From Syntrophaceae bacterium UBA5744 (GTDB taxonomy: Bacteria > Desulfobacterota > Syntrophia > Syntrophales > UBA2192), in NCBI GenBank assembly GCA_002419215.1, contig DIFQ01000127.1:5332-37331 (forward strand): a stretch of DNA of 32,000 nt, read 5' to 3'. The notes beneath the pieces were generated by a model. It was not told where the DNA came from, searched no databases, and saw only the letters and a program-made list of their open reading frames with translations. A program made the translations under genes and the position numbers. Position 1 is the first letter of the stretch, and each line of letters starts with the position of its first letter. This document shows positions 21,738-31,172 of this stretch, in pieces.

Positions 21738-21785
21738 TGGCACCGGAGGACGCAATCGAACCGTCGCGCCCCCAGGGGACGGGGG
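21738..21785 (-). other. 3'-terminal tRNA-like fragment (variable-arm hairpin, T-arm, acceptor 3' strand, CCA); candidate att site at the island border
   Basis: The minus strand reads CCCCCGTCCCCTGGGGG-CGC-GACGG-TTCGATT-GCGTC-CTCCGGT-G-CCA. That is a GTTCGATT T-loop, a 4-5 bp T-stem (one G:G mismatch at the 53:61 position), a 7-nt acceptor strand, a discriminator and CCA. No matching 5' acceptor strand, D-arm or anticodon arm could be folded upstream. Confidence 0.45.
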
Positions 21786-22007
21786 ATTTTGAGTTCAAAC
21801 CCGCATCCCGGGCGATTTTTCCATGATTTCAAATCTTTGCATATCAAGTGGTTGCAAGAGAGCATGTTTGGTTCCGTTTGTTCCCATATGGGACTATTTT
21901 GCTTGGTCGGTGACGAATAAGTTACAGGTAATGGATGTTAAGGCAGGCCGAAAACGATGGCATCGCATGATTTCACGCAGGCGAATAGTCACTTTCGAAA
22001 GATAGGA

Positions 22008-23192
22008 TCAGACATGACCTTGTGTTATGTAATCCATCAAGAGGCTATAACGAAACGTATGCTTATCATCGCCTGCCGACTTGAAGCGATCCAGTTCGCT
22101 GGCAACGAAGTCGCTGATTCGCTGCATGCCTATTACCATAGGTGATTTTGACAAGTCGACGACCTTCATCCAATCAAGAATCAGGCAACCATCATGGTCT
22201 TTTATTATCATTTTACTGCAAAGTTCGATCAGTCCCTTCGCAGTGCGGGCATAGTCATCATTGATGATCTCGCAGTCCCTGAGGGATGAATCCAGCAAGT
22301 TGACGATGTTCTCTCCCACAACTATTCGGGGATATCCTGCCTTCCGGCTTTCAAGCTCGTAGGCTTCAAAGGGGGCCCTTCCGTAAATGCCCGTCTTATG
22401 CATCTCCAAGGATATGCCGAGATCGATCCCCCCTCTAACAGGCTTCTTGTCCATCAACTGAAGGTACATTACGCTGGCGCATAGACGAAGCATGCTTTGG
22501 ATTCCTTCGAAAATGGTTACAAGGTTGATGCCCGTCGAAATATCCTTGCTTTGATACAAAGGAATGTAGATGACAAGACCATCTGCTAAACTATGAATCC
22601 CCATTTTTCTTCGAGGGATGTGAAGCTTGGCTGTTTTTGTTTTCGTCCAGTATTGACCGTAAAGCTCTTCAAATCTATCTCGCAGCTTGATTACAGCACC
22701 GAATGTTTCCGCCCAGATGCTTTTATGCTCGCCGTATTCTTCTTCCGGCTTGGGAAGGGTATTGAGCTTTCGCAGTCTGCTGCGTTGCCCCAAGAGGTCG
22801 ATGTAAGCGGCAACGTAAAAAGCAATGCTTCTAAATTCCTTTTTAATTGATTGCTTGATTGCGTTCCGGACATCCTTAATGAACTGATCAACCTCGGACA
22901 GCTCCAACGTTATCATATCGTTCGACAGGTTGTCGAAGTGGCGGATAACGATCTTCTTCCCGGCGACGCTCACTTCTTTGAGATGAAAAATAGGATCAAG
23001 AGGGCAGCCGCTGGATGCGTTAGTTAATGCGTTTTCAATCGAAAGTATAAGATCGTCCGATCTGTTCATCGGAACATGGATAAGATTACCTCCTCGCTTC
23101 ACCATTAATAGGCCATTCCCCATCTTGATTTCGATAGCCGGCGAGGCATTTGGGGGTCGTTTTCCTTTTTTCGTATGCTTTTTTGCGGTCAT
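22008..23192 (-). CDS. Hypothetical protein with a divergent palm-fold nucleotidyl cyclase-like domain (class III cyclase / GGDEF / Cas10-palm type)
   Basis: 394 aa. Three ordered motifs resemble the cyclase homology domain. IAFYVAAYIDLLGQRSRL resembles FxDIxGFT. HSLADGLVIYIPL resembles the K-x-GD-x-hhhF second metal Asp strand. VRGGIDLGISLEMHKTGIYGRAPFEAYELESRKAGYPRIVVGENI resembles R-h-G-I-H-x-G...G...VNxAxRLES...I-x-VS. The transition-state Asn/Arg of VNxAxR are not conserved (PFEAYE). Assigned from memory, without a search. Confidence 0.45.
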   Translation of the reverse strand: MTAKKHTKKGKRPPNASPAIEIKMGNGLLMVKRGGNLIHVPMNRSDDLILSIENALTNASSGCPLDPIFHLKEVSVAGKKIVIRHFDNLSNDMITLELSEVDQFIKDVRNAIKQSIKKEFRSIAFYVAAYIDLLGQRSRLRKLNTLPKPEEEYGEHKSIWAETFGAVIKLRDRFEELYGQYWTKTKTAKLHIPRRKMGIHSLADGLVIYIPLYQSKDISTGINLVTIFEGIQSMLRLCASVMYLQLMDKKPVRGGIDLGISLEMHKTGIYGRAPFEAYELESRKAGYPRIVVGENIVNLLDSSLRDCEIINDDYARTAKGLIELCSKMIIKDHDGCLILDWMKVVDLSKSPMVIGMQRISDFVASELDRFKSAGDDKHTFRYSLLMDYITQGHV

Positions 23193-23229
23193 CGTATCAT
23201 TCCTGCTACATGCGTTGCATCATGGCTAG

Positions 23230-24018
23230 TTATGACTTTCCGACTTCCCCCTCACCGGCGTTGAATTGGATGATCTCAGGACTTATTGAATTGGCGACTT
23301 TCAAGATCGCGATCGGGAACTCGGATGGCGATCCTATTCCGCCTTCCATCCTACTTATCTCCCGACCTCCAAAAACCCAGAACCCCGCATCACTGAGCTC
23401 CTGAAGCATTTCGCTCATTCTATATGCTGCTTTGACTCGATCATAAGGTTCAAGAACGTGCGAGAGATCCCCCCAATCCTGTGCCTCTTGAAAAAAATTA
23501 CCAAACATTTCAGCCTCTGATTCTGATTTGGGCTCGTCGTGGACGAAAGAGTAGGCCATAGCACTATCAATAATATTGATGACGTCTTGTCCCGTAGTTA
23601 ACCGAACGAGGTGGCTGGGAATATTCTCCTTGATCCTGCGGATCCGGACTGGAGGCGGTTCTTTGCGGTCGTTAAGGCTTGAGGATACCCATTTTTCGTG
23701 GTTTGACTTAATTTTTTGGAGTAACTCTGCAATATATGTATCGCATTGGTCATCGACCATCTTGTGGTGGACCCGGCAGAGAAGGATAAGATTATCGAGT
23801 TCATTGAAGCGATCTCCTGGGAACGCCGGATCGTATCGCGGCCCTTGGGTTTTAGATGACAAAATGTGGCATTCGTCGCCGACAACTGACTCATCATCTC
23901 CTGCCGAGGAATCTATCACGAGTTCACGTCGGCAAAAGGCGCACCTGTTACCCGAACGGCCCCATAGAATTTTTCTTGTCTTATCGGATATCGGCATCGT
24001 TTCTGACAGACCTGGCAT
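23230..24018 (-). CDS. HNH endonuclease-domain protein with an uncharacterised C-terminal domain
   Basis: 262 aa. N-terminal GNRCAFCRREL...GDECHILSSK...NLILLCRVHHKMVDD gives the CxxC...H...N...CxxHH zinc-finger HNH layout. About 150 aa of C-terminal sequence has no motif I recognise. Confidence 0.75.
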   Translation of the reverse strand: MPGLSETMPISDKTRKILWGRSGNRCAFCRRELVIDSSAGDDESVVGDECHILSSKTQGPRYDPAFPGDRFNELDNLILLCRVHHKMVDDQCDTYIAELLQKIKSNHEKWVSSSLNDRKEPPPVRIRRIKENIPSHLVRLTTGQDVINIIDSAMAYSFVHDEPKSESEAEMFGNFFQEAQDWGDLSHVLEPYDRVKAAYRMSEMLQELSDAGFWVFGGREISRMEGGIGSPSEFPIAILKVANSISPEIIQFNAGEGEVGKS

Positions 24019-24069
24019 TTGGTTTTGCTCCGCCGCTGTCGATCTTGATCAACTCAACGGGGAGCGTGT

Positions 24070-24930
24070 TCAGAAATTTTCTATACGACCAAGCTTTCGG
24101 AGAATCATCTCACCAAGTTGCTGGGGCGATGTATCTCGGAGATCGACATGCCCGATCGTCTTCCGTACACCAGGAACTTCAGTAGCGTCGAAACGAGCGG
24201 GTAAGATATACTCACCCTTCTCTTCGACTGCACGAGCCAAAGCACTCCTTCTCTCATGATTCGGCCATACCTTTTTGGCGTATGCACCCGAGATGAACAT
24301 GACGCAGTACCGAGCCGAACGATAAACTATGTCAAGGTGCTCTGTCAGTTCCTTGCCCCACATTGTAACGTCCTCATAGCGATCATAGAAACACCTGACG
24401 TCATGTTCTTTCAAAAAAGCTGCTACCTGTTCTACGTAAGCTCGATCTTCTCCGGCAAAAGACAGCACGATTTCATACACATCAAGATCTCCGGATCCTC
24501 CAGCTTCAAATAGGTCGACTGCTTTATAGATAGGTCGTCCCGATATGTGGGATGCAACGACCAACTTCACGCCGTCTTTCTCGAGAAAGGAATTGAATTC
24601 TTTTGACAGTGACGACGCCTCTGCATCATCTTTAACTGATAACGGATGGAGACAGGTTTCCAGGAATCTCAAGAAGATTGCATCGTCACAACCGAGAAGA
24701 TTCAATCTTTCGCACAGAAGGTATTGATGATCCCAGTCATCATTCCTGATCATGTGTTGCCAGATATCACCGTCCGCATTGTTGAAGCGATGATCAGTTG
24801 ATGGCATCTCTGATAAATTCCATATACGTTTCAGGAATGTCATAAGATCCATCCGCCCATGAAATGATCTCCGACCGCCGAGTAGTATGTGATCAATAAT
24901 TGAAGAGCGCGTGATTTCTGTCAGCTGCAT
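24070..24930 (-). CDS. TIR-domain protein with an uncharacterised N-terminal domain
   Basis: The C-terminal half YEIVLSFAGEDRAYVEQVAAFLKEHDVRCFYDRYEDVTMWGKEL...ARYCVMFISGAYAKKVWPNHERRSAL matches bacterial TIR_2-type domains (FxSxxxED, h-W-D strand, candidate catalytic Glu in WPNHE). ATG at 24930 (MQLTEITRSS) has GAGG 6 nt upstream and lies 13 nt after the upstream stop. The track start at 25026 would overlap the upstream gene by 83 nt. Confidence 0.8.
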   Translation of the reverse strand: MQLTEITRSSIIDHILLGGRRSFHGRMDLMTFLKRIWNLSEMPSTDHRFNNADGDIWQHMIRNDDWDHQYLLCERLNLLGCDDAIFLRFLETCLHPLSVKDDAEASSLSKEFNSFLEKDGVKLVVASHISGRPIYKAVDLFEAGGSGDLDVYEIVLSFAGEDRAYVEQVAAFLKEHDVRCFYDRYEDVTMWGKELTEHLDIVYRSARYCVMFISGAYAKKVWPNHERRSALARAVEEKGEYILPARFDATEVPGVRKTIGHVDLRDTSPQQLGEMILRKLGRIENF

Positions 24931-24943
24931 AAATTCCTCATTA

Positions 24944-27900
24944 TCAGAGTTGACTGGCCCACTTGAGATACTCGTCCATTCCGGGAATGTCCATGCGCAG
25001 AAATTGATCCTGCAGAAGAACGGCACGGCGAATCAGTTCTTTATCATCAGTTTCATCCGCCTCCCGAAGAATACTGGACAAAGCAGCAACAAGGGGCTCG
25101 GTGTGCCATATCCGATGAGGCGGGTCCACTTCACTCAGCTTAGTAAAAAGGTGTTCACAGATATCGATAGCAGAGACCGGATCACGTCCAGCAAGGTCTG
25201 CAAGCCAGTCTAAAAAGGAGTGAAGATTGAAGTTGCTAAGATCTATGGCACTGAGGAAATTGAGAGCGAAGTCTCGATCTAAGCGCCGGCCCTGAATCTT
25301 TGGCGCAAAAGCATGCTCAATAGAGCCGTGTATCCTCATGTCCAGTTTGTCCCATTTTAAAATGCGTTTCAGACCATTTACACAGGCATTGTTGTATTGA
25401 TCCAAATTGGCCGTAAAAACCTGAGCAACTCCAAGCAACGCCGTTTCAAGATTCATTGATTCCAGATGGGAAAATAGGACATCATGCTCTATGTGGCCAG
25501 ACAGGGAGGACAGTGCTGCAATTCTCCCCCAGGCTTCGCCTGCTTCGGCAGGCGCTTCAAGGCGCATTCTCTCCAGATAAGGAGCTACTTCGCTAAAATG
25601 TTCATGGTACTGATAGTATAGGTGTCTTTCAGCAAGGGGCCACAAATGGATTTGAGGTTCGCGGAAGATTTTGTGAAACAGTTGCCAACCCAGTGCATGA
25701 CGTCTGGCCGTTAGGTACGGCAAATGCTCCAACAAGGCGGCCCGGACAGCCCCTACAGGGTCATATGTAAAAAGGCATATGAGGGAGAACAGGCTTTCGG
25801 GGGGATCTATATCCTTTTCCAGTAGACGATTATACAGCATTATTGCCGAGCCAGCGGTAATTCCTCGTATACTGCTTATGGCGTCACTCCGGAGATCCTC
25901 TGCTGTTATCCCTTTCTTGTTCTGACTGAAGATTCTCTGCCGTTCTCCTTCCGGATCAGGGTGCTTGGAAAGACGGAATAGCTGTAGGACGAGTCGCCTT
26001 ACTGAATCGCTGTCCTCTAGGACTTCGCAACAGGCTTCCAGAATCCGGACTACTGCATGGCCATCCTGCAGTAAATACGGTCTGCTTTCTATGATGTCCA
26101 GCAATGAGCCGGCCAGGGCTGCCCCATCCGGCAGAGGCTCGGTCGCTTGCCACTTTTCAGGCGGTCTCAATCGTCCGAAGCGGTAACGAAGGTGGTCGGC
26201 CGCGCCGTTGAGCAGACTGCTTATATAGCCGGTCTTGAGGTATTCCCGCTCAACTTTGGGCAACAGGGTGAGGAAGCGCATCGGATTTCTTGAGGTTGCC
26301 TCATCCAGCGTGCGCTCTACCATGTCACGACCGCCCTTATTTATATCTGCGGGATGACTGCTGTGATCACTATAATCGTTGTAGTAAAGGAACAACCGGA
26401 GCAGATCGCTATCATTCAGCATCATGAAATTCTCCAGAGGGACCGGAGAACCTACCCAGCCACCCCGAGAATAGATGCGTGCCCTCGGTGTATATGGACC
26501 GAAGTGGGGTTCGAAGCGCTCGATGAATTCTTGGCCAGTAGGAAGCCGGAATATCGAGGGTATCCAGATAAGGTAGTTGTAAATGGGGCGGTAATCCCAT
26601 ATTGTCACTTCAGCACTCCAATTTTTCTCATCGTAAAGCGCGAGAATAGCTTTCTGATTTGTTTCTTGAATTTCCGGCGTCAGAAGGTGGTATCCGGTAC
26701 GTATCAATTCGCCCAATTCATGCTCGATGTGACCGTAGCGGAGCAGTTTCTCGTTCGTAAGAAGGGCACTCATTCCATCAATATTCGCTTCGGGATTTTC
26801 CTTATAGGCCTGTATGAGAAAGTAGAGTAGTACCTCCTCCTGGGAGGATCTAAGCTCCGGCTCTCGCCTACGCCACCACTCGTCATTTTTCCGGGCGTGG
26901 TGCTTGAAGGCATGCTCAACGGCAGACAGAAAGATAGTGAAAGCGTCAGCCGGGTGCATGTCATAATGGCAGTGGCTGTATTCCCAGGACGAGCTATGGA
27001 GAAAAGTCATTCTTTGATACCTTGCAGATATTGCGCTATCGCTGGTCGCCCACTCCTCCAAGGCATTTGTGGCGGTATCCAAAAGCCATTCTGAATAGAG
27101 CATCCTATTAAGAAAGAATTCTTTTTCATGAAAGACATGGGGTTCGCAGTGCAGCTTTTTTCCTACGTCATAGGATTTAATATCACTCGGGTTTACATCC
27201 TTGATGATGTATCTCCACAGCAATTCGTCGCCCTGATTAGTTGCATCAACATAACGGCTGATCACAGTCCCAAGAAAATCTCTTTGGGCCTTGCTCTCTG
27301 CGAATAACGTTTCCATCAGATCAGGGGTCCCTTCAATATCCCAGTGCTGAAAGTTGCTGAGCTGGAAGGTGACTTGTAAAGCGAGTTCGCTCGCATCCTC
27401 CCATCCGTCGGAGAATGCCCTCCTCCATAAGGAGACCACCTCGCCGGGATGGGAGTTCATCCAGCGCTCGAATTGTCTCACGAATAACTTGTACCACTCA
27501 CCATCCGATGTAGGTGGTGCGAGCGATGGAAGCCATCGATCGAGGAGCATCTTAAACCACGCGTCACCATTAATCCTCCAAAACAAACGGCGGAATAGCT
27601 CCGGTTCCAGACGAAAAAGCCGCTGCAATAAGGGCCAGTCCTCACTCTCAGGATTAATTTCAGCAAGTGATTCAGCAATCAGACGTCTAAAGTGATAGGC
27701 AATCTCCGTGTCGTGTAAGGCAGCCCATATTTGTCTGGGGAACAGGTCAGGGGCGTGAGTCCGCAAGTGGAATACGAAGGTGCGCACAGCAGCACGTAGA
27801 AATGGGAAGGGAGGATGGGCTTTTATGAACGCAGCAAGATCTTCATTGCGTGCGATAGAGGAATAGACCGCCATGTTGTCAAGCAGGGTCTGATGACTGA

Positions 27901-29521
27901 ATCCGAAATTGCCATTTGGATCTTCATATAGAACTCCATTGCTGACTAGGGACCGGCGGATATATTCCCCACCTGAAAAGGCTGCAGGATGGATAAGGTT
28001 AGTACGATCACGAAGCAACCGAGAGGCCAACGCTTGCAATGCTGCAATTGCCGGTTGTCCTAGGGCAGGATCTTTGCTGACCACCTCTTGGAGGTAAACT
28101 TCGTGTAATTCATAGGCCGTGTGTATGTCGCATCGACCGCCGCGCGATACGATTGCTTCAAACAACCGCAGATTCTGCGGGAGCAAAAGGAGACGCCGCA
28201 ATTCCGCGTCCACCTGTATTTCTTGAATGCCCCATTCTTTCAACAGCGGGGCCACAACTGCGTCATAGTCGAAGTCTGCAATGTGAATTTTATGATCCCA
28301 TTTTCGATCACGGAGTTGCTGATCGTACTGAAGATCAAATGTACGGCATGCCGCGACTACTGTTACGTTCCGCATCGGATTCAGACGGTCAATGAGTCGC
28401 AGGAACATGCCAAGAGCCCCATGCTCGCGGTTCATCGACAAAACATCCAGGGAATCAATTATCACAATCACACGGCGGTGCTCAGAGAGTCTACCGCAGA
28501 GACCGACGATATCTCCCGGCAAGCCGGCGCTCTTTAGATCCCCTTCGTTGCCGAGCCGCGCGAAAAGGTCTCCTTTAATGAACAACAGGCCGAAACGAGA
28601 GTCCTGCTCAATGCGGTCTGCAAGATCCAGCAGAAGGCAGGTTTTTCCGCTACCTGGTCGGTCGAGTACAAGCACGGTGTCGGCGCCACCTTCTATCAAC
28701 TGGGCTAATTTTTCTAATTCAGCTCTCTCGATCCGATGTCCCCCGACCGCTCGTTGCCACTGTCGACCAATGCAGGATGCCTGTTCAAACTGTTTAAGAA
28801 TTACGACCTCGCTTATCATGGGCGCCTGCACTAGGCCTTTCTGAGCGAGATGTTGGATAACGTCGTTTCGACGAATGGTCCATGTTGTGGCCTGAATCTT
28901 GGACTGGTGTGCATTGAGAAATGATTCGAGAACCGGTAGGGCCAGGTCGGCGTGGGAGACCAATTGTTTCAGGTCCCACTTATTTTGCCGATCCCAATCA
29001 TCAAAAGAATGGTGCGCCCCGAATTCGAGACGGCGTAAGAGATGGAGAGATTTTGCCTCGGAACATTCCCATTTAGTGGCTATTGCTGTCAGAGCGGCTT
29101 GCAGTTTCTCGCCGCTTTGTCGTTTGAATGATGCAAGATCTGGGTACTCTCTGCTTGCCTCCGCAAGGGACTGAATGTCTCCAAAGGGTGTACGGGAATA
29201 AAGTTCGACAACGGTATTATCGTTGCTTTCCAGTTGACTTCGGATTTTGGGCAATTCATCAGCCAGGCTCTGGTCGGATAATGACCATGCGCGATTTTGC
29301 GGCTGATTTTTCTTGGCTTGTATGTGGCGTCGCCGACCATTGGTGTAAACGACCACTACATCATCGACACTGATTTGCTCGTCGACACCCGGAAGGCCAT
29401 TCGATTCAGCCTGAATGAAGTCGATTCCATCGTCGTCTTTAATGAGACGGATAATCCAGTGCAGCGCTATCACACGTTGATAGTCATCCCCTTGGCTCGA
29501 TTTAGTGCCGGCTCTACTCAT
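24944..29521 (-). CDS. Large P-loop NTPase (STAND/AAA-like) with an N-terminal Cap4/DUF4297-type PD-(D/E)xK nuclease domain and a helical-repeat C-terminal region of about 1,000 aa; Avs-like architecture
   Basis: 1,525 aa. The N-terminus QGDDYQRVIALHWIIRL...ISVDDVVVVYTNGRRRHIQAKK has the GxxYQ plus D...QxK motifs of the DUF4297/Cap4 nuclease fold. Walker A is LDRPGSGKTCLL, Walker B is RRVIVIIDSLDVL and sensor-like is VTVVAACRT. The rest is Leu/Trp/His-rich helical sequence with no catalytic motif. Confidence 0.7.
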   Translation of the reverse strand: MSRAGTKSSQGDDYQRVIALHWIIRLIKDDDGIDFIQAESNGLPGVDEQISVDDVVVVYTNGRRRHIQAKKNQPQNRAWSLSDQSLADELPKIRSQLESNDNTVVELYSRTPFGDIQSLAEASREYPDLASFKRQSGEKLQAALTAIATKWECSEAKSLHLLRRLEFGAHHSFDDWDRQNKWDLKQLVSHADLALPVLESFLNAHQSKIQATTWTIRRNDVIQHLAQKGLVQAPMISEVVILKQFEQASCIGRQWQRAVGGHRIERAELEKLAQLIEGGADTVLVLDRPGSGKTCLLLDLADRIEQDSRFGLLFIKGDLFARLGNEGDLKSAGLPGDIVGLCGRLSEHRRVIVIIDSLDVLSMNREHGALGMFLRLIDRLNPMRNVTVVAACRTFDLQYDQQLRDRKWDHKIHIADFDYDAVVAPLLKEWGIQEIQVDAELRRLLLLPQNLRLFEAIVSRGGRCDIHTAYELHEVYLQEVVSKDPALGQPAIAALQALASRLLRDRTNLIHPAAFSGGEYIRRSLVSNGVLYEDPNGNFGFSHQTLLDNMAVYSSIARNEDLAAFIKAHPPFPFLRAAVRTFVFHLRTHAPDLFPRQIWAALHDTEIAYHFRRLIAESLAEINPESEDWPLLQRLFRLEPELFRRLFWRINGDAWFKMLLDRWLPSLAPPTSDGEWYKLFVRQFERWMNSHPGEVVSLWRRAFSDGWEDASELALQVTFQLSNFQHWDIEGTPDLMETLFAESKAQRDFLGTVISRYVDATNQGDELLWRYIIKDVNPSDIKSYDVGKKLHCEPHVFHEKEFFLNRMLYSEWLLDTATNALEEWATSDSAISARYQRMTFLHSSSWEYSHCHYDMHPADAFTIFLSAVEHAFKHHARKNDEWWRRREPELRSSQEEVLLYFLIQAYKENPEANIDGMSALLTNEKLLRYGHIEHELGELIRTGYHLLTPEIQETNQKAILALYDEKNWSAEVTIWDYRPIYNYLIWIPSIFRLPTGQEFIERFEPHFGPYTPRARIYSRGGWVGSPVPLENFMMLNDSDLLRLFLYYNDYSDHSSHPADINKGGRDMVERTLDEATSRNPMRFLTLLPKVEREYLKTGYISSLLNGAADHLRYRFGRLRPPEKWQATEPLPDGAALAGSLLDIIESRPYLLQDGHAVVRILEACCEVLEDSDSVRRLVLQLFRLSKHPDPEGERQRIFSQNKKGITAEDLRSDAISSIRGITAGSAIMLYNRLLEKDIDPPESLFSLICLFTYDPVGAVRAALLEHLPYLTARRHALGWQLFHKIFREPQIHLWPLAERHLYYQYHEHFSEVAPYLERMRLEAPAEAGEAWGRIAALSSLSGHIEHDVLFSHLESMNLETALLGVAQVFTANLDQYNNACVNGLKRILKWDKLDMRIHGSIEHAFAPKIQGRRLDRDFALNFLSAIDLSNFNLHSFLDWLADLAGRDPVSAIDICEHLFTKLSEVDPPHRIWHTEPLVAALSSILREADETDDKELIRRAVLLQDQFLRMDIPGMDEYLKWASQL

Positions 29522-29568
29522 GGACGTAATTCCAATGGTATTTAGATCATAAGGGATGGTCCTTTATG

Positions 29569-30813
29569 CTACAGATATGCTACAGCATTTTTTTGTATAA
29601 GGGCCACGATTTTGCCGATGATCCCATCGTTTTTCTGATTTTTTTCAAAATCCGTTGATACGGGTTCTGCAATAGTGACGATCCGCGAGGCCATATCGCT
29701 GACCATGTTGAGGACGTACCGGCGTTTTAAGGAAACGGCATCAGCGAATCTTTCCCAGTTTCGCGTGTGGAGCCAGCGGGCCCTGTTCTCCCCTCCGATC
29801 TTCATCGCGAACTTTTCAGCCAGGTGCGGGTAAACCTGCGTCGAAAGCAGGTCGTAGAAAGGTGCCAACTGCGGGCCCTTGTCCGTGAACAGGATGGATA
29901 GATTCTTCGCATGGGCGTCGGCATTTCCGACGACGACGTTGAAAATAACCCATCTGAGGAGGGCCCGCTGGTCCGCCGCCGGCCGGATGCTGTGCTCCTT
30001 GAGAAGGGCAAAACATTGCTCGAGCGATGGACCTCCCTCACTCTCGTATTTCTGCTCCGGCAAGATTCCCAAGGCCTGACAAAAGTCTTCCTGATGAAGT
30101 CGGACGACCGTACCGTCCTTTTTTCTTTCCCGGTCATAACGCGTGACGACCAGGATTGTATCCTGATTTTTCCTGATGATCACATCTGCAACGGGAATAT
30201 GCATTCTCCATGCGAGCGTCATGCAGAAGGCCTCATTTTCAACGGATTGCTCTATGCGGGGAATGGGTGGCTTGAGAACGTGCGTGCTGGGGCTGGTCCC
30301 CGTAGCAATATAGATTTTATCCTCGTCATCTATATAAACGGGTAGTTTATTCTGCGCACCGGCAAGTGATAAACGAATACCCTTATCCCCGGCTAAGAGT
30401 GGTCTCCTTGGGAGCTCGGCAAGCATCTTGTGGAATGCCTCTTCATCGAGTTCCCTGTAGCCGGAACGGTCAACAGGCTGTGAGCCCCGCGGGAGAATTG
30501 AGACGGCACCCGCGCATTCTCCTCCTATTTTCTCGAGCAGGGAATAGGCGTTTTGCTCTGAGACACGGAACTGCTTGGCAATCAGCTCCCGAATCTCCCC
30601 TTCGGGCAGGAGGTTCGCAAAAAAAGGACGCGCTGTGTCATCGGAGTAGGGCTCCGGCCGAAGAGGCAGTGATAGAGATAGCGGGAAAATGTGTGACCCC
30701 TTAAGCCATCCGGTATCGTATTGAAAGACAAATCGACGTCGCTCGTCAAGCCAGAGCTTTCCGGCAAGCCGGTCGCGGAAATAAACGTCGAGTCCTGGCG
30801 ATTTCTCACTCAT
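29569..30813 (-). CDS. hipA: HipA-family serine/threonine kinase toxin
   Basis: 414 aa. MSEKSPGLDVYFRDRLAGKLWLDERRRFVFQYDTGWL...FFANLLPEG...GECAGAV...LAGAQNKLP...NADAHAKNLS matches the HipA N-terminal coupling and kinase core motifs. Confidence 0.9.
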   Translation of the reverse strand: MSEKSPGLDVYFRDRLAGKLWLDERRRFVFQYDTGWLKGSHIFPLSLSLPLRPEPYSDDTARPFFANLLPEGEIRELIAKQFRVSEQNAYSLLEKIGGECAGAVSILPRGSQPVDRSGYRELDEEAFHKMLAELPRRPLLAGDKGIRLSLAGAQNKLPVYIDDEDKIYIATGTSPSTHVLKPPIPRIEQSVENEAFCMTLAWRMHIPVADVIIRKNQDTILVVTRYDRERKKDGTVVRLHQEDFCQALGILPEQKYESEGGPSLEQCFALLKEHSIRPAADQRALLRWVIFNVVVGNADAHAKNLSILFTDKGPQLAPFYDLLSTQVYPHLAEKFAMKIGGENRARWLHTRNWERFADAVSLKRRYVLNMVSDMASRIVTIAEPVSTDFEKNQKNDGIIGKIVALIQKNAVAYL

Positions 30814-31036
30814 TCGACCATGTCCTCTCCTTGATTTCTAGTTCGAGGCCGAGGGCCGCAAGGACCTGCAGGACTTTGTCGAGGCGCACCGTCGGTTTCC
30901 CGTTTTCTAGATTCGATAAGAAACGGTAATTCACATTGCACAGACCGGCGGCGTCTATGAGGGTCAAACCGTCCCCCTTACGCTTTCTCCGGACCGCCGC
31001 CCCGATATCCGTGACGGATTTTACGAGCATCATCAC
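30806..31036 (-). CDS. hipB: HipB-like XRE-family HTH antitoxin
   Basis: 76 aa. IGAAVRRKRKGDGLTLIDAAGLCNVNYRFLSNLENGKPTVRLDKVLQVLAALGLEL is a Cro/C1-type HTH. There is an 8-nt overlap (ATGAGTGA) with hipA, and GGAGG lies 6 nt upstream of the GTG/ATG start cluster. Confidence 0.85.
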   Translation of the reverse strand: MMMLVKSVTDIGAAVRRKRKGDGLTLIDAAGLCNVNYRFLSNLENGKPTVRLDKVLQVLAALGLELEIKERTWSNE

Positions 31037-31054
31037 GCTATTCCTCCGAAAATG

Positions 31055-31172
31055 TATTCCCGATCGGGAATATTAATAGAAGAAAAGTGATCTGTCAAGT
31101 GATTTATTCCCGACCGGGAATAAATTGCACCGATCGAGGCAATACGATATTGAATATTCCCGGACGGGAATA
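31055..31172. promoter_or_regulatory. Three phased 18-bp palindromic operators (TATTCCCG-N2-CGGGAATA) upstream of hipB
   Basis: tattcccgatcgggaata at 31055-31072, tattcccgaccgggaata at 31105-31122 and tattcccggacgggaata at 31155-31172. The arms are identical, only the central dinucleotide varies, and the start-to-start spacing is exactly 50 bp. Confidence 0.75.

Follow-up and report, generated by a model that had tools for sequence, protein, structure and literature searches.

Our results show that a protein encoded in a 32,000-nucleotide stretch of DNA from Syntrophaceae bacterium UBA5744 (contig DIFQ01000127.1; below, the window always means this whole stretch) belongs, as a divergent member, to a large bacterial family that has no name, and we place this family within the class III nucleotidyl-cyclase superfamily as a branch not described before. 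The open reading frame (ORF) lies at 22008..23192 on the minus strand, is complete, starts with ATG and encodes 394 amino acids (aa); its coordinates include the stop codon (22008-22010), and the sequence AGGA is found 8-12 nucleotides upstream of the ATG. The family retains the half of the cyclase active site that holds the metals and the triphosphate and is without the half that is contributed by the partner subunit. The reading we prefer, to which we give a probability of about 50%, is that its members are active enzymes of the cyclase superfamily that depend on nucleoside triphosphates (NTPs) and Mg or Mn, complete their active site with elements of their own, probably as dimers, and work as stand-alone genes.

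Class III cyclases are among the best-studied signaling enzymes, and six canonical residues of the active site are taken to identify them. Here, a large branch of this textbook superfamily combines an altered active site with an unexplained stand-alone lifestyle and has gone without annotation. The family is widespread in bacteria and invisible to Pfam, NCBIfam and PADLOC. Its metal and triphosphate half-site is absolutely conserved and the other half has been replaced. If its members are active, the cyclase superfamily would have a wider chemistry or architecture than is known today, and a nucleotide product new to bacterial physiology or immunity could come with it.

The evidence for the fold comes from predicted structures. 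An AlphaFold2 model of the full-length protein, built on a 120-sequence alignment, has a mean predicted local distance difference test score (pLDDT) of 80.9, with residues 120-394 mostly above 85. A model of residues 115-394 reaches a pLDDT of 90 and a predicted template modeling score of 0.89. When the latter model was compared to PDB structures with Foldseek, all of the 50 best matches were catalytic domains of class III adenylate or guanylate cyclases (AC/GC), with probabilities of 1.00 for 49 of them and 0.99 for the remaining one. The best E-value was 1.1e-4, 28 matches were found at E<=1e-3, and the template modeling score (TM-score, target-normalized) was at most 0.66. The structures matched include Rv1900c, CyaC, CyaB, Cya2, Ma1120, soluble guanylate cyclase, photoactivated cyclases and mammalian AC. 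Nearly all PDB matches of the full-length model are class III cyclase domains too. The model also shows the beta-alpha-beta-beta-alpha-beta arrangement of the cyclase-homology fold, and on the strength of the model and the Foldseek matches we assign residues 120-293 (22314..22835, minus strand, as for all codon positions given below) to a class III palm-like, cyclase-homology core.

The first-pass annotation of this gene, made from the letters of the sequence, had proposed a cyclase-homology fold and had grouped it with related palm domains. The first part is borne out by the structural comparison, in which cyclases are the only structures among the 50 best matches. The kinship with GGDEF, Cas10 and mCpol domains is weaker: no GGDEF, Cas10 or polymerase structure is found among the 50 best PDB matches of the 115-394 model, and an hhalign comparison to a hand-assembled GGDEF alignment gave an E-value of 0.25 and a probability of 0.2%.

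The motifs that had led to this proposal are all present in the translated protein and follow each other in the order claimed: KKHTKKGKRPP (residues 4-14), YIDLLGQ (residues 130-136), SLADGLVIYI (residues 201-210), VRGGIDLG (residues 252-259), GIYGRAPFEAYELES (residues 268-282) and RIVVGENI (residues 289-296). Against a small cyclase alignment, assembled by hand from the PDB hits, hhalign returned a single local match, IYGRAPFEAYELES..RIVVG against VVGAQVNLTYRIES..QIFIS, which has the same register as the one the motifs had suggested. With an E-value of 0.022 and a probability of 2%, this match is below significance, and such matches were used for the register only.

In the model, these motifs fall where a cyclase would have them. 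D132, part of the IDLLGQ motif (residues 131-136; 22785..22802), is the putative first metal ligand and stands at the end of strand 120-133 (beta1). The putative second ligand, D204 (codon at 22581..22583), belongs to LADG, which reads WSDG in the consensus of the family, and sits at the turn of the beta2-beta3 hairpin between strands 198-202 and 205-211. R253 (codon at 22434..22436, within P-V-R-G-G-I) opens the next long strand, beta4, and is the counterpart of the Arg in the R-x-G-I-H-x-G strand of cyclases. The YG...LES segment, YGRAPFEAYELES (residues 270-282; 22347..22385), forms the helix that follows beta4 and is, in the hhalign register, equivalent to the cyclase G-D-T-V-N-x-A-x-R-L-E-S helix. 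RIVV forms a short strand after this helix.

How large is the family? A phmmer search yielded ten relatives of about 285-313 aa, an identical protein included, which align to residues ~120-394 of the window protein (its match to the protein P0002 has an E-value of 7.6e-24). A profile made from these relatives led to at least 228 proteins in a word-indexed search. An exhaustive search with the same profile, in a space of 1.84 billion cluster representatives, found 7,852 family clusters (counted at 50% identity) at E<=1e-3, 2,782 at E<=1e-10 and 1,199 at E<=1e-30. The typical member is a single-domain protein of about 290 aa. The window protein is 25-32% identical to other members, and its exact sequence occurs on 14 metagenome or genome contigs, where the neighboring genes are the same as well.

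None of these proteins could be named by sequence comparison. Every family member that carries a name is labeled “hypothetical protein,” and a description of this family was not found in literature searches. The window protein matched nothing in Pfam, NCBIfam or PADLOC at E<=1, is not recognized by the Pfam Guanylate_cyc profile and has no meaningful match among PDB sequences. One hit in that last search, COQ8B with an E-value of 0.0013, spans a short stretch of 48 residues and was discarded. The family profile did not retrieve a cyclase from the PDB sequences either. Scanned one by one against Pfam, 120 members weakly matched 47 families, none of them in more than three members, and no cyclase family is among the 25 most frequent of these weak matches. 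A PADLOC scan of the same 120 members gave one match to “Cyclase” (in 1 member, E 0.035), which is at chance level, and three members compared to NCBIfam gave nothing. The homology to cyclases is thus out of reach of sequence methods, and the claim of a cyclase fold is well supported by the predicted structure.

The one profile that recognizes the whole sample is phrog_23933, a phage family of unknown function. It matches 120 of the 120 members in residues ~218-339, from alpha3 into the C-terminal region, with a best E-value of 1.4e-12. Distant phage relatives of the C-terminal half of the family may therefore exist. A phage or plasmid origin of the family itself was considered and dropped: a tblastn search of phage and plasmid collections with two members and pattern scans of IMG/VR uncovered no family member.

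The conservation of the active site speaks for a functional pocket. We counted residues in 262 single-domain members, many of which represent clusters at 50% identity. D132, D204, R253, G271, E281, P288 and R289 are found in all 262. Hence, the two aspartates by which class III cyclases bind their metals are invariant and occupy the canonical positions in the model. The first-pass annotation had singled out these two residues, and it had named their loss among homologs, or a predicted structure with another fold, as grounds for giving up the proposal; what we find is a cyclase fold and two aspartates without exception. Nearly invariant are G135 (253 of 262) and Q136 (257 of 262), which together form the counterpart of the D-x-x-G-F-T phosphate-binding turn of cyclases, as well as A285 (259 of 262). 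The window protein retains every strictly invariant residue of the family, and it departs at several near-invariant positions, for example S203A, E268G, G343K and L378H. As far as sequence conservation can tell, this pattern favors a working metal and NTP site.

The other half of the canonical site is a different matter. In the hhalign register, the transition-state Asn corresponds to residue 275, which is Ala in 183 of the 262 members and Phe in the window protein. The transition-state Arg corresponds to residue 279, which is Glu in 149 members, the window protein among them (E279), and Arg in 13. Lack of the canonical Asn and Arg, noticed earlier for the window protein, is hence a family-wide property, and the VNxAxR signature of class III cyclases does not describe it. 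The positions that specify the base, held by Lys and Asp in adenylate cyclases and by Glu and Cys in guanylate cyclases, appear to have changed as well. Going by motif spacing and order, the Lys position, four residues before D204, holds Gln in 219 of the 262 members and His in the window protein; going by motif order, the position of the base-specifying Asp, three residues before G271, holds Glu in 232 members and Gly in the window protein.

What the family has in addition is a C-terminal subdomain of about 100 residues, mostly helical in the models and specific to the family (residues 294-394; 22011..22313). It carries two conserved motifs. The first is DxDG (D332, D334 and G335; 22188-22199), which the models place on a small hairpin; D332 is kept in 260 and D334 in 258 of the 262 members. 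The second is R381-Y382 (22047-22052) on the terminal helix, where Tyr is found in 260 members and Arg in 249, with Lys in 11 more. Neither the DxDG hairpin nor the RY helix has a counterpart in canonical cyclase domains.

Three proteins of about 600-640 aa (P0123, P0224 and P0238) carry two family domains each and show which residues can be lost. In all three, the N-terminal copy has replaced D204 (by G, N and N), has changed E281 to Ala and has lost D334 through a one-residue deletion; in two of the three it has also exchanged D132 for Glu. The C-terminal copies keep D132, D204, E281 and D334. Both copies keep R253 and P288-R289, and position 278 is Tyr or Phe in both; G135-Q136, Y270-G271 and D332 are nearly always kept in both. 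This is the pattern of the pseudo-heterodimers known from class III cyclases and, by analogy, it suggests a dimeric working unit. All the lost residues are lost from one copy. Therefore, the simplest reading puts D204, E281 and D334 into a single half-site, and the protein can do with one intact site. A GGDEF-like mechanism requires two loaded sites, so the loss within the same copy argues against it. What both copies retain may have a structural role or may act in trans. As natural pseudo-heterodimers, the tandem proteins are a possible guide for mutagenesis.

From these observations we propose the following mechanism. D132 and D204 would bind two metals, and R253 would bind the phosphates together with the G135-Q136 turn. 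Catalysis would be completed by elements specific to the family instead of by Asn and Arg; E281 is a candidate, as are DxDG and RY in the C-terminal subdomain. Alternatively, the nucleotidyl group could be transferred to a different acceptor. Either the protein's own C-terminal subdomain completes the site or another acceptor is used, because the residues that position the ribose and the transition state are missing. The product would then probably not arise through the textbook 3′,5′-cyclization mechanism. As in cyclases, the working unit would most likely be a dimer, and the protein would act as a stand-alone unit and not as the signal generator of a conserved multigene signaling system.

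The resemblance to class III AC/GC domains, such as those of Rv1900c (1ybt/1ybu), Ma1120 (5d15), Spirulina CyaC (1wc1) and Pseudomonas aeruginosa CyaB (3r5g), which are the nearest counterpart among known proteins, goes beyond the core fold. Both have one Asp at the end of beta1 and another in the beta2-beta3 hairpin. In both, beta4 begins with an Arg, and after the G...A..LES helix comes a short hydrophobic strand. Tandem pseudo-heterodimers with one degenerate half occur on both sides, and a dimeric mode of operation is probably common to them as well. The family differs from these domains in that it has no match to a Pfam or other cyclase profile, that Asn has given way to Ala, Arg to Glu and, going by motif order, the base-specifying Lys to Gln (His in the window protein), and that some 100 extra residues at its C-terminus form a helical subdomain with DxDG and RY; its typical members are without sensor domains. 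Since both the Asn/Arg pair and membership by profile fail, we would not list the protein among the canonical class III cyclases.

A further parallel is the C1 half-domain of mammalian AC, which keeps the two metal aspartates, is degenerate at the Asn and Arg positions and forms a half-site that needs complementation. In PDB-derived sequences, the C1 domain of AC8 has D and K at these positions, and that of AC9 keeps the Asn and has L in place of the Arg. Unlike C1, which is complemented by the paralogous C2 in the same polypeptide, typical members of our family consist of a single domain and have no partner gene. The tandem members differ from C1/C2 too, in that their lost residues are all in one copy, whereas in C1/C2 the losses are split between the copies.

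Several observations weigh against our preferred reading. The similarity to cyclases is not significant by sequence (hhalign probability 2%), and for that reason residues were equated through the predicted fold and the order of the motifs instead of through a superposition of individual residues. A single duplication event may have given rise to all three tandem proteins. Most family members stand among housekeeping genes, and at the level of the family a role in defense finds no support. The PUR-like assignment of the N-terminal domain of the window protein, discussed below, rests on a part of the model that has moderate confidence and is effectively built on a single sequence, together with weak Foldseek E-values. 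Finally, there are proteins with a cyclase fold that merely bind ATP (6yii) or do not catalyze at all (AdvA, 7sua).

The last point leads to the alternative that we take most seriously, although we consider it clearly less probable than an active enzyme: the family could consist of pseudo-enzymes or nucleotide sensors that have kept an NTP and metal pocket without turnover and serve as ligand-binding switches or scaffolds. The precedents are close at hand. AdvA of Acinetobacter baumannii (7sua) is a membrane-anchored cell-division protein with a cyclase fold that has neither the catalytic residues nor cyclase activity (bioRxiv 10.64898/2026.04.03.716176). Both AdvA and 6yii, the class III cyclase-like ATP-binding protein of P. 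aeruginosa, are among our structural matches, share with the family a cyclase fold with extra helical elements at the C-terminus, and have very low identity to canonical cyclases. The missing transition-state Asn and Arg and the apparent loss of the base-specifying Lys fit a sensor, and it is simpler to account for a missing partner or receptor gene if the protein senses a nucleotide than if it generates a signal. Domains of the AdvA type, in turn, have lost their catalytic residues, whereas in our family the metal aspartates and the beta4 Arg are invariant and the GQ turn nearly so; the model of the window protein is also without the extended hydrophobic helix that would span a membrane. Such invariance, with site residues given up just in the redundant copy of the tandem proteins, is what one expects of a catalytic site, though a conserved binding site is compatible with it as well.

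Compared to the typical member of about 290 aa, the window protein is longer, and none of the other family members seen has anything that corresponds to its residues 1-119. The N-terminal extension of 114 codons is unlikely to be open by chance (p ~0.0014, given the local base composition). It begins with a Lys/Arg-rich tail, MTAKKHTKKGKRPPNASPA (residues 1-19; 23136..23192), which has a pLDDT of 40-57 and is probably disordered according to the model. A domain peculiar to the window protein follows (residues 20-119; 22836..23135), modeled as two beta-beta-beta-alpha units with a pLDDT of 57-78; homologs that cover this region are absent from the alignment. That the N-terminal ~120 aa have no assignment by sequence had already been stated, and it holds for NCBIfam and PADLOC as well as for Pfam, in which this region gives nothing even at E<=10.

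Structure comparison gives a lead. With the full-length model, Foldseek matches repeats I-II of PUR-alpha at probabilities of 0.94-0.99, TM-scores of 0.33-0.43 and E-values of ~1e-2; aligned lengths of about 120-140 columns are what assigns these matches to the N-terminal ~120 residues. Further matches of this domain are phage proteins annotated as “T4 y05I-like N-terminal domain,” and phrog_14024 matches residues 70-114 with an E-value of 4e-4. We tentatively regard the domain as PUR-alpha/Whirly-like and possibly nucleic-acid binding, which is what the model suggests. Like PUR-alpha/Whirly-like repeats it has two tandem units of a sheet plus a helix, here with a basic tail in front. It differs from them in having three strands per unit in the model instead of the four of PUR repeats, in the lack of sequence similarity and in the low confidence of the model. 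If the assignment is correct, the Lys-rich tail and the PUR-alpha-like domain would probably use nucleic acid to anchor or control the enzyme, in the window copy only. Such a link between nucleic acid and activity or localization would be in keeping with the defense-type island described below.

One could also argue that a palm-type site next to such a domain belongs to a nucleic-acid-directed nucleotidyltransferase, which adds nucleotides to a nucleic acid or nucleotidylates a nucleic acid or protein. In the window copy, the acceptor would be brought in by the PUR-like domain. A palm-like fold with a dyad of two aspartates, followed by a helical, thumb-like C-terminal subdomain, would suit such an activity, as would the absence of the residues that position the substrate's own 3′-OH and, in the window protein, the PUR-alpha-like domain with its basic tail. 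Typical members do without any nucleic-acid-binding extension, though, the PUR-like assignment is weak, and the 50 best structural matches hold no polymerase, GGDEF or Cas10 structure. We regard this explanation as improbable.

The genomic surroundings of the window copy are suggestive of defense. From ~21.9 kb to 30 kb, the GC content of the window is 46-52%, and it rises to 54% by the window's end (32 kb), compared to a genome of ~63% GC. Our gene is located at the edge of this low-GC block, whose defense-type genes, all on the minus strand, span 21900-31100. Upstream of it, on the same strand and with short gaps, lie genes for a STAND-type NTPase of 1,525 aa (24944-29521), whose N-terminus matches LmuA/Cap4-like PADLOC models, an AbiJ_NTD3-TIR protein (24070-24930) and an HNH protein of 262 aa (23230-24018). 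Further upstream the block contains a defense-type hipA gene (29569-30813, minus strand as well) with a helix-turn-helix partner upstream, and on a matching metagenome contig the sequence continues past HipBA with the R subunit of a type I restriction enzyme. Because of its position in this low-GC defense-type island, a role of the window copy in defense is plausible but unproven.

In such a setting it is tempting to see a signaling operon, in which the product of our protein activates the adjacent HNH nuclease, the TIR protein upstream, or both, as in Pycsar, in the cyclic-oligonucleotide-based antiphage signaling system (CBASS) or in type III CRISPR systems. Indeed, the gene had initially been described as the last of a candidate operon, in the position that a signal-generating enzyme would occupy. 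The genes are co-directional, the gaps are 37 bp between HNH and our gene and 51 bp between TIR and HNH, and no promoter-like or same-strand terminator-like site was found between the co-directional genes. The N-terminus of the HNH protein resembles the HNH domain of the HNH-SAVED effector models of CBASS (PADLOC, E-values down to 2e-28) and also the PADLOC candidate PDC-M68A, and its conserved C-terminal ~140 aa are without assignment, having matched neither SAVED nor any Pfam model. There is even a distant family member, P0200 (569 aa), in which the family domain is fused to an N-terminal region of 270 aa with a CxxC...DH...CxxCN motif that looks HNH-like by eye.

The neighborhoods of other family members do not bear this out. 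We examined 51 loci, each in a different species genome (Betaproteobacteria, Nitrospira, Desulfobacterota and others), along with the 150 best of ~7,800 representatives. Clustering of all ORFs within +/-5 kb revealed no recurrent neighbor in the 51 loci, and a relaxed search among small flanking ORFs produced isolated pairs and again no recurrent neighbor. The genes next to the family, classified with Pfam and PADLOC, are heterogeneous and mostly unrelated housekeeping genes, such as mutS, phosphoketolase and various regulators. A minority belongs to defense or toxin-antitoxin systems (MADS, restriction-modification, Dsr1, PIN, STAND), and some copies are close to integrases, transposases or a conjugative element. 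We infer that the family functions as a stand-alone gene without a conserved partner.

The same picture emerges from the side of the HNH protein. Its family, with 1,542 matches to proteins of about 250-270 aa, is much better conserved than that of our protein: the best 120 of the 1,542 are 55-96% identical over their full length. In 80 metagenome loci of the HNH family, 45 of which include at least 1 kb of downstream DNA, there is no cyclase-like gene and no recurrent neighbor, and the HNH protein looks like a single-gene module. Because loci elsewhere show each of the two without the other and without a fixed neighbor, the HNH gene and our gene look like independent modules. The domain content of the STAND and TIR genes suggests that they, too, are separate modules. 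Two observations that had seemed to link HNH proteins to the family also came to nothing. The 261-aa neighbor of the family gene in a Nitrosomonas locus is unrelated to the window HNH protein, and the motif of P0200 found no support in Pfam, NCBIfam, the PDB or an hhalign comparison to the HNH family of the window. Genes that are co-directional and tightly spaced in a defense island need not form a functional operon.

Comparison to the known systems completes the argument. With PycC of Pycsar, GGDEF, Cas10 and mCpol, our protein would share a palm-type, two-metal nucleotide chemistry, and the window copy has its place in a defense-type island. PycC and the other defense cyclases are defined by a conserved pairing with an effector or receptor gene. 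Unlike the palm cyclases of Pycsar, CBASS and type III CRISPR systems, our family has no effector partner, and no PADLOC cyclase model matches it. GGDEF diguanylate cyclases differ in the hairpin, where our protein has LADG and the family WSDG in place of a GGDEF/GGDD-type motif, and there is no Pfam GGDEF match. Hence, neither the hairpin motif and profile of GGDEF proteins nor the conserved cyclase-effector adjacency of Pycsar was found. With no cyclase-like gene at 80 HNH loci, no conserved neighbor at 51 family loci and an HNH C-terminus that resembles neither SAVED nor another Pfam model, the signaling operon is the least probable of the explanations discussed here.

A more speculative extension of the stand-alone enzyme that we prefer is a longer shot than the nucleotide sensor, and we find it rather unlikely in its entirety. 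The family could be an unrecognized class of single-gene nucleotide-converting enzymes in which the protein's own DxDG/RY subdomain replaces the Asn/Arg half-site that otherwise acts in trans, and which make a noncanonical product or consume NTPs without a dedicated receptor gene. Coupled to a PUR-like sensor, the window copy would be a one-protein defense module that senses nucleic acid and makes or depletes a nucleotide.

Three smaller observations concern the genes around the family. The gap of 515 bp between our gene and a response-regulator gene contains a sequence, GGTTCGATTGCGTCCTCCGGTGCCA (~21738-21775, minus strand), that to the eye looks like the T-arm and acceptor 3′ end of a tRNA. 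A tRNA remnant or integration site near the break in GC content was discarded as an explanation, as ARAGORN reports no tRNA in the window and Rfam nothing in this stretch. The longest ORF of the TIR gene starts with GTG at 25026 and overlaps the 3′ end of the STAND gene, whose stop lies at 24944; gene callers on matching contigs place the TIR start at an ATG at ~24930, which yields a protein of 286 aa and a 13-bp gap to the STAND gene. Lastly, in 2 of the 51 loci, from two betaproteobacterial metagenome-assembled genomes (L011, 5246-8873, and L029/L142), the family gene follows a full-length mutS on the same strand at a distance of 10 bp, and this is the only adjacency we have seen that hints at DNA metabolism.

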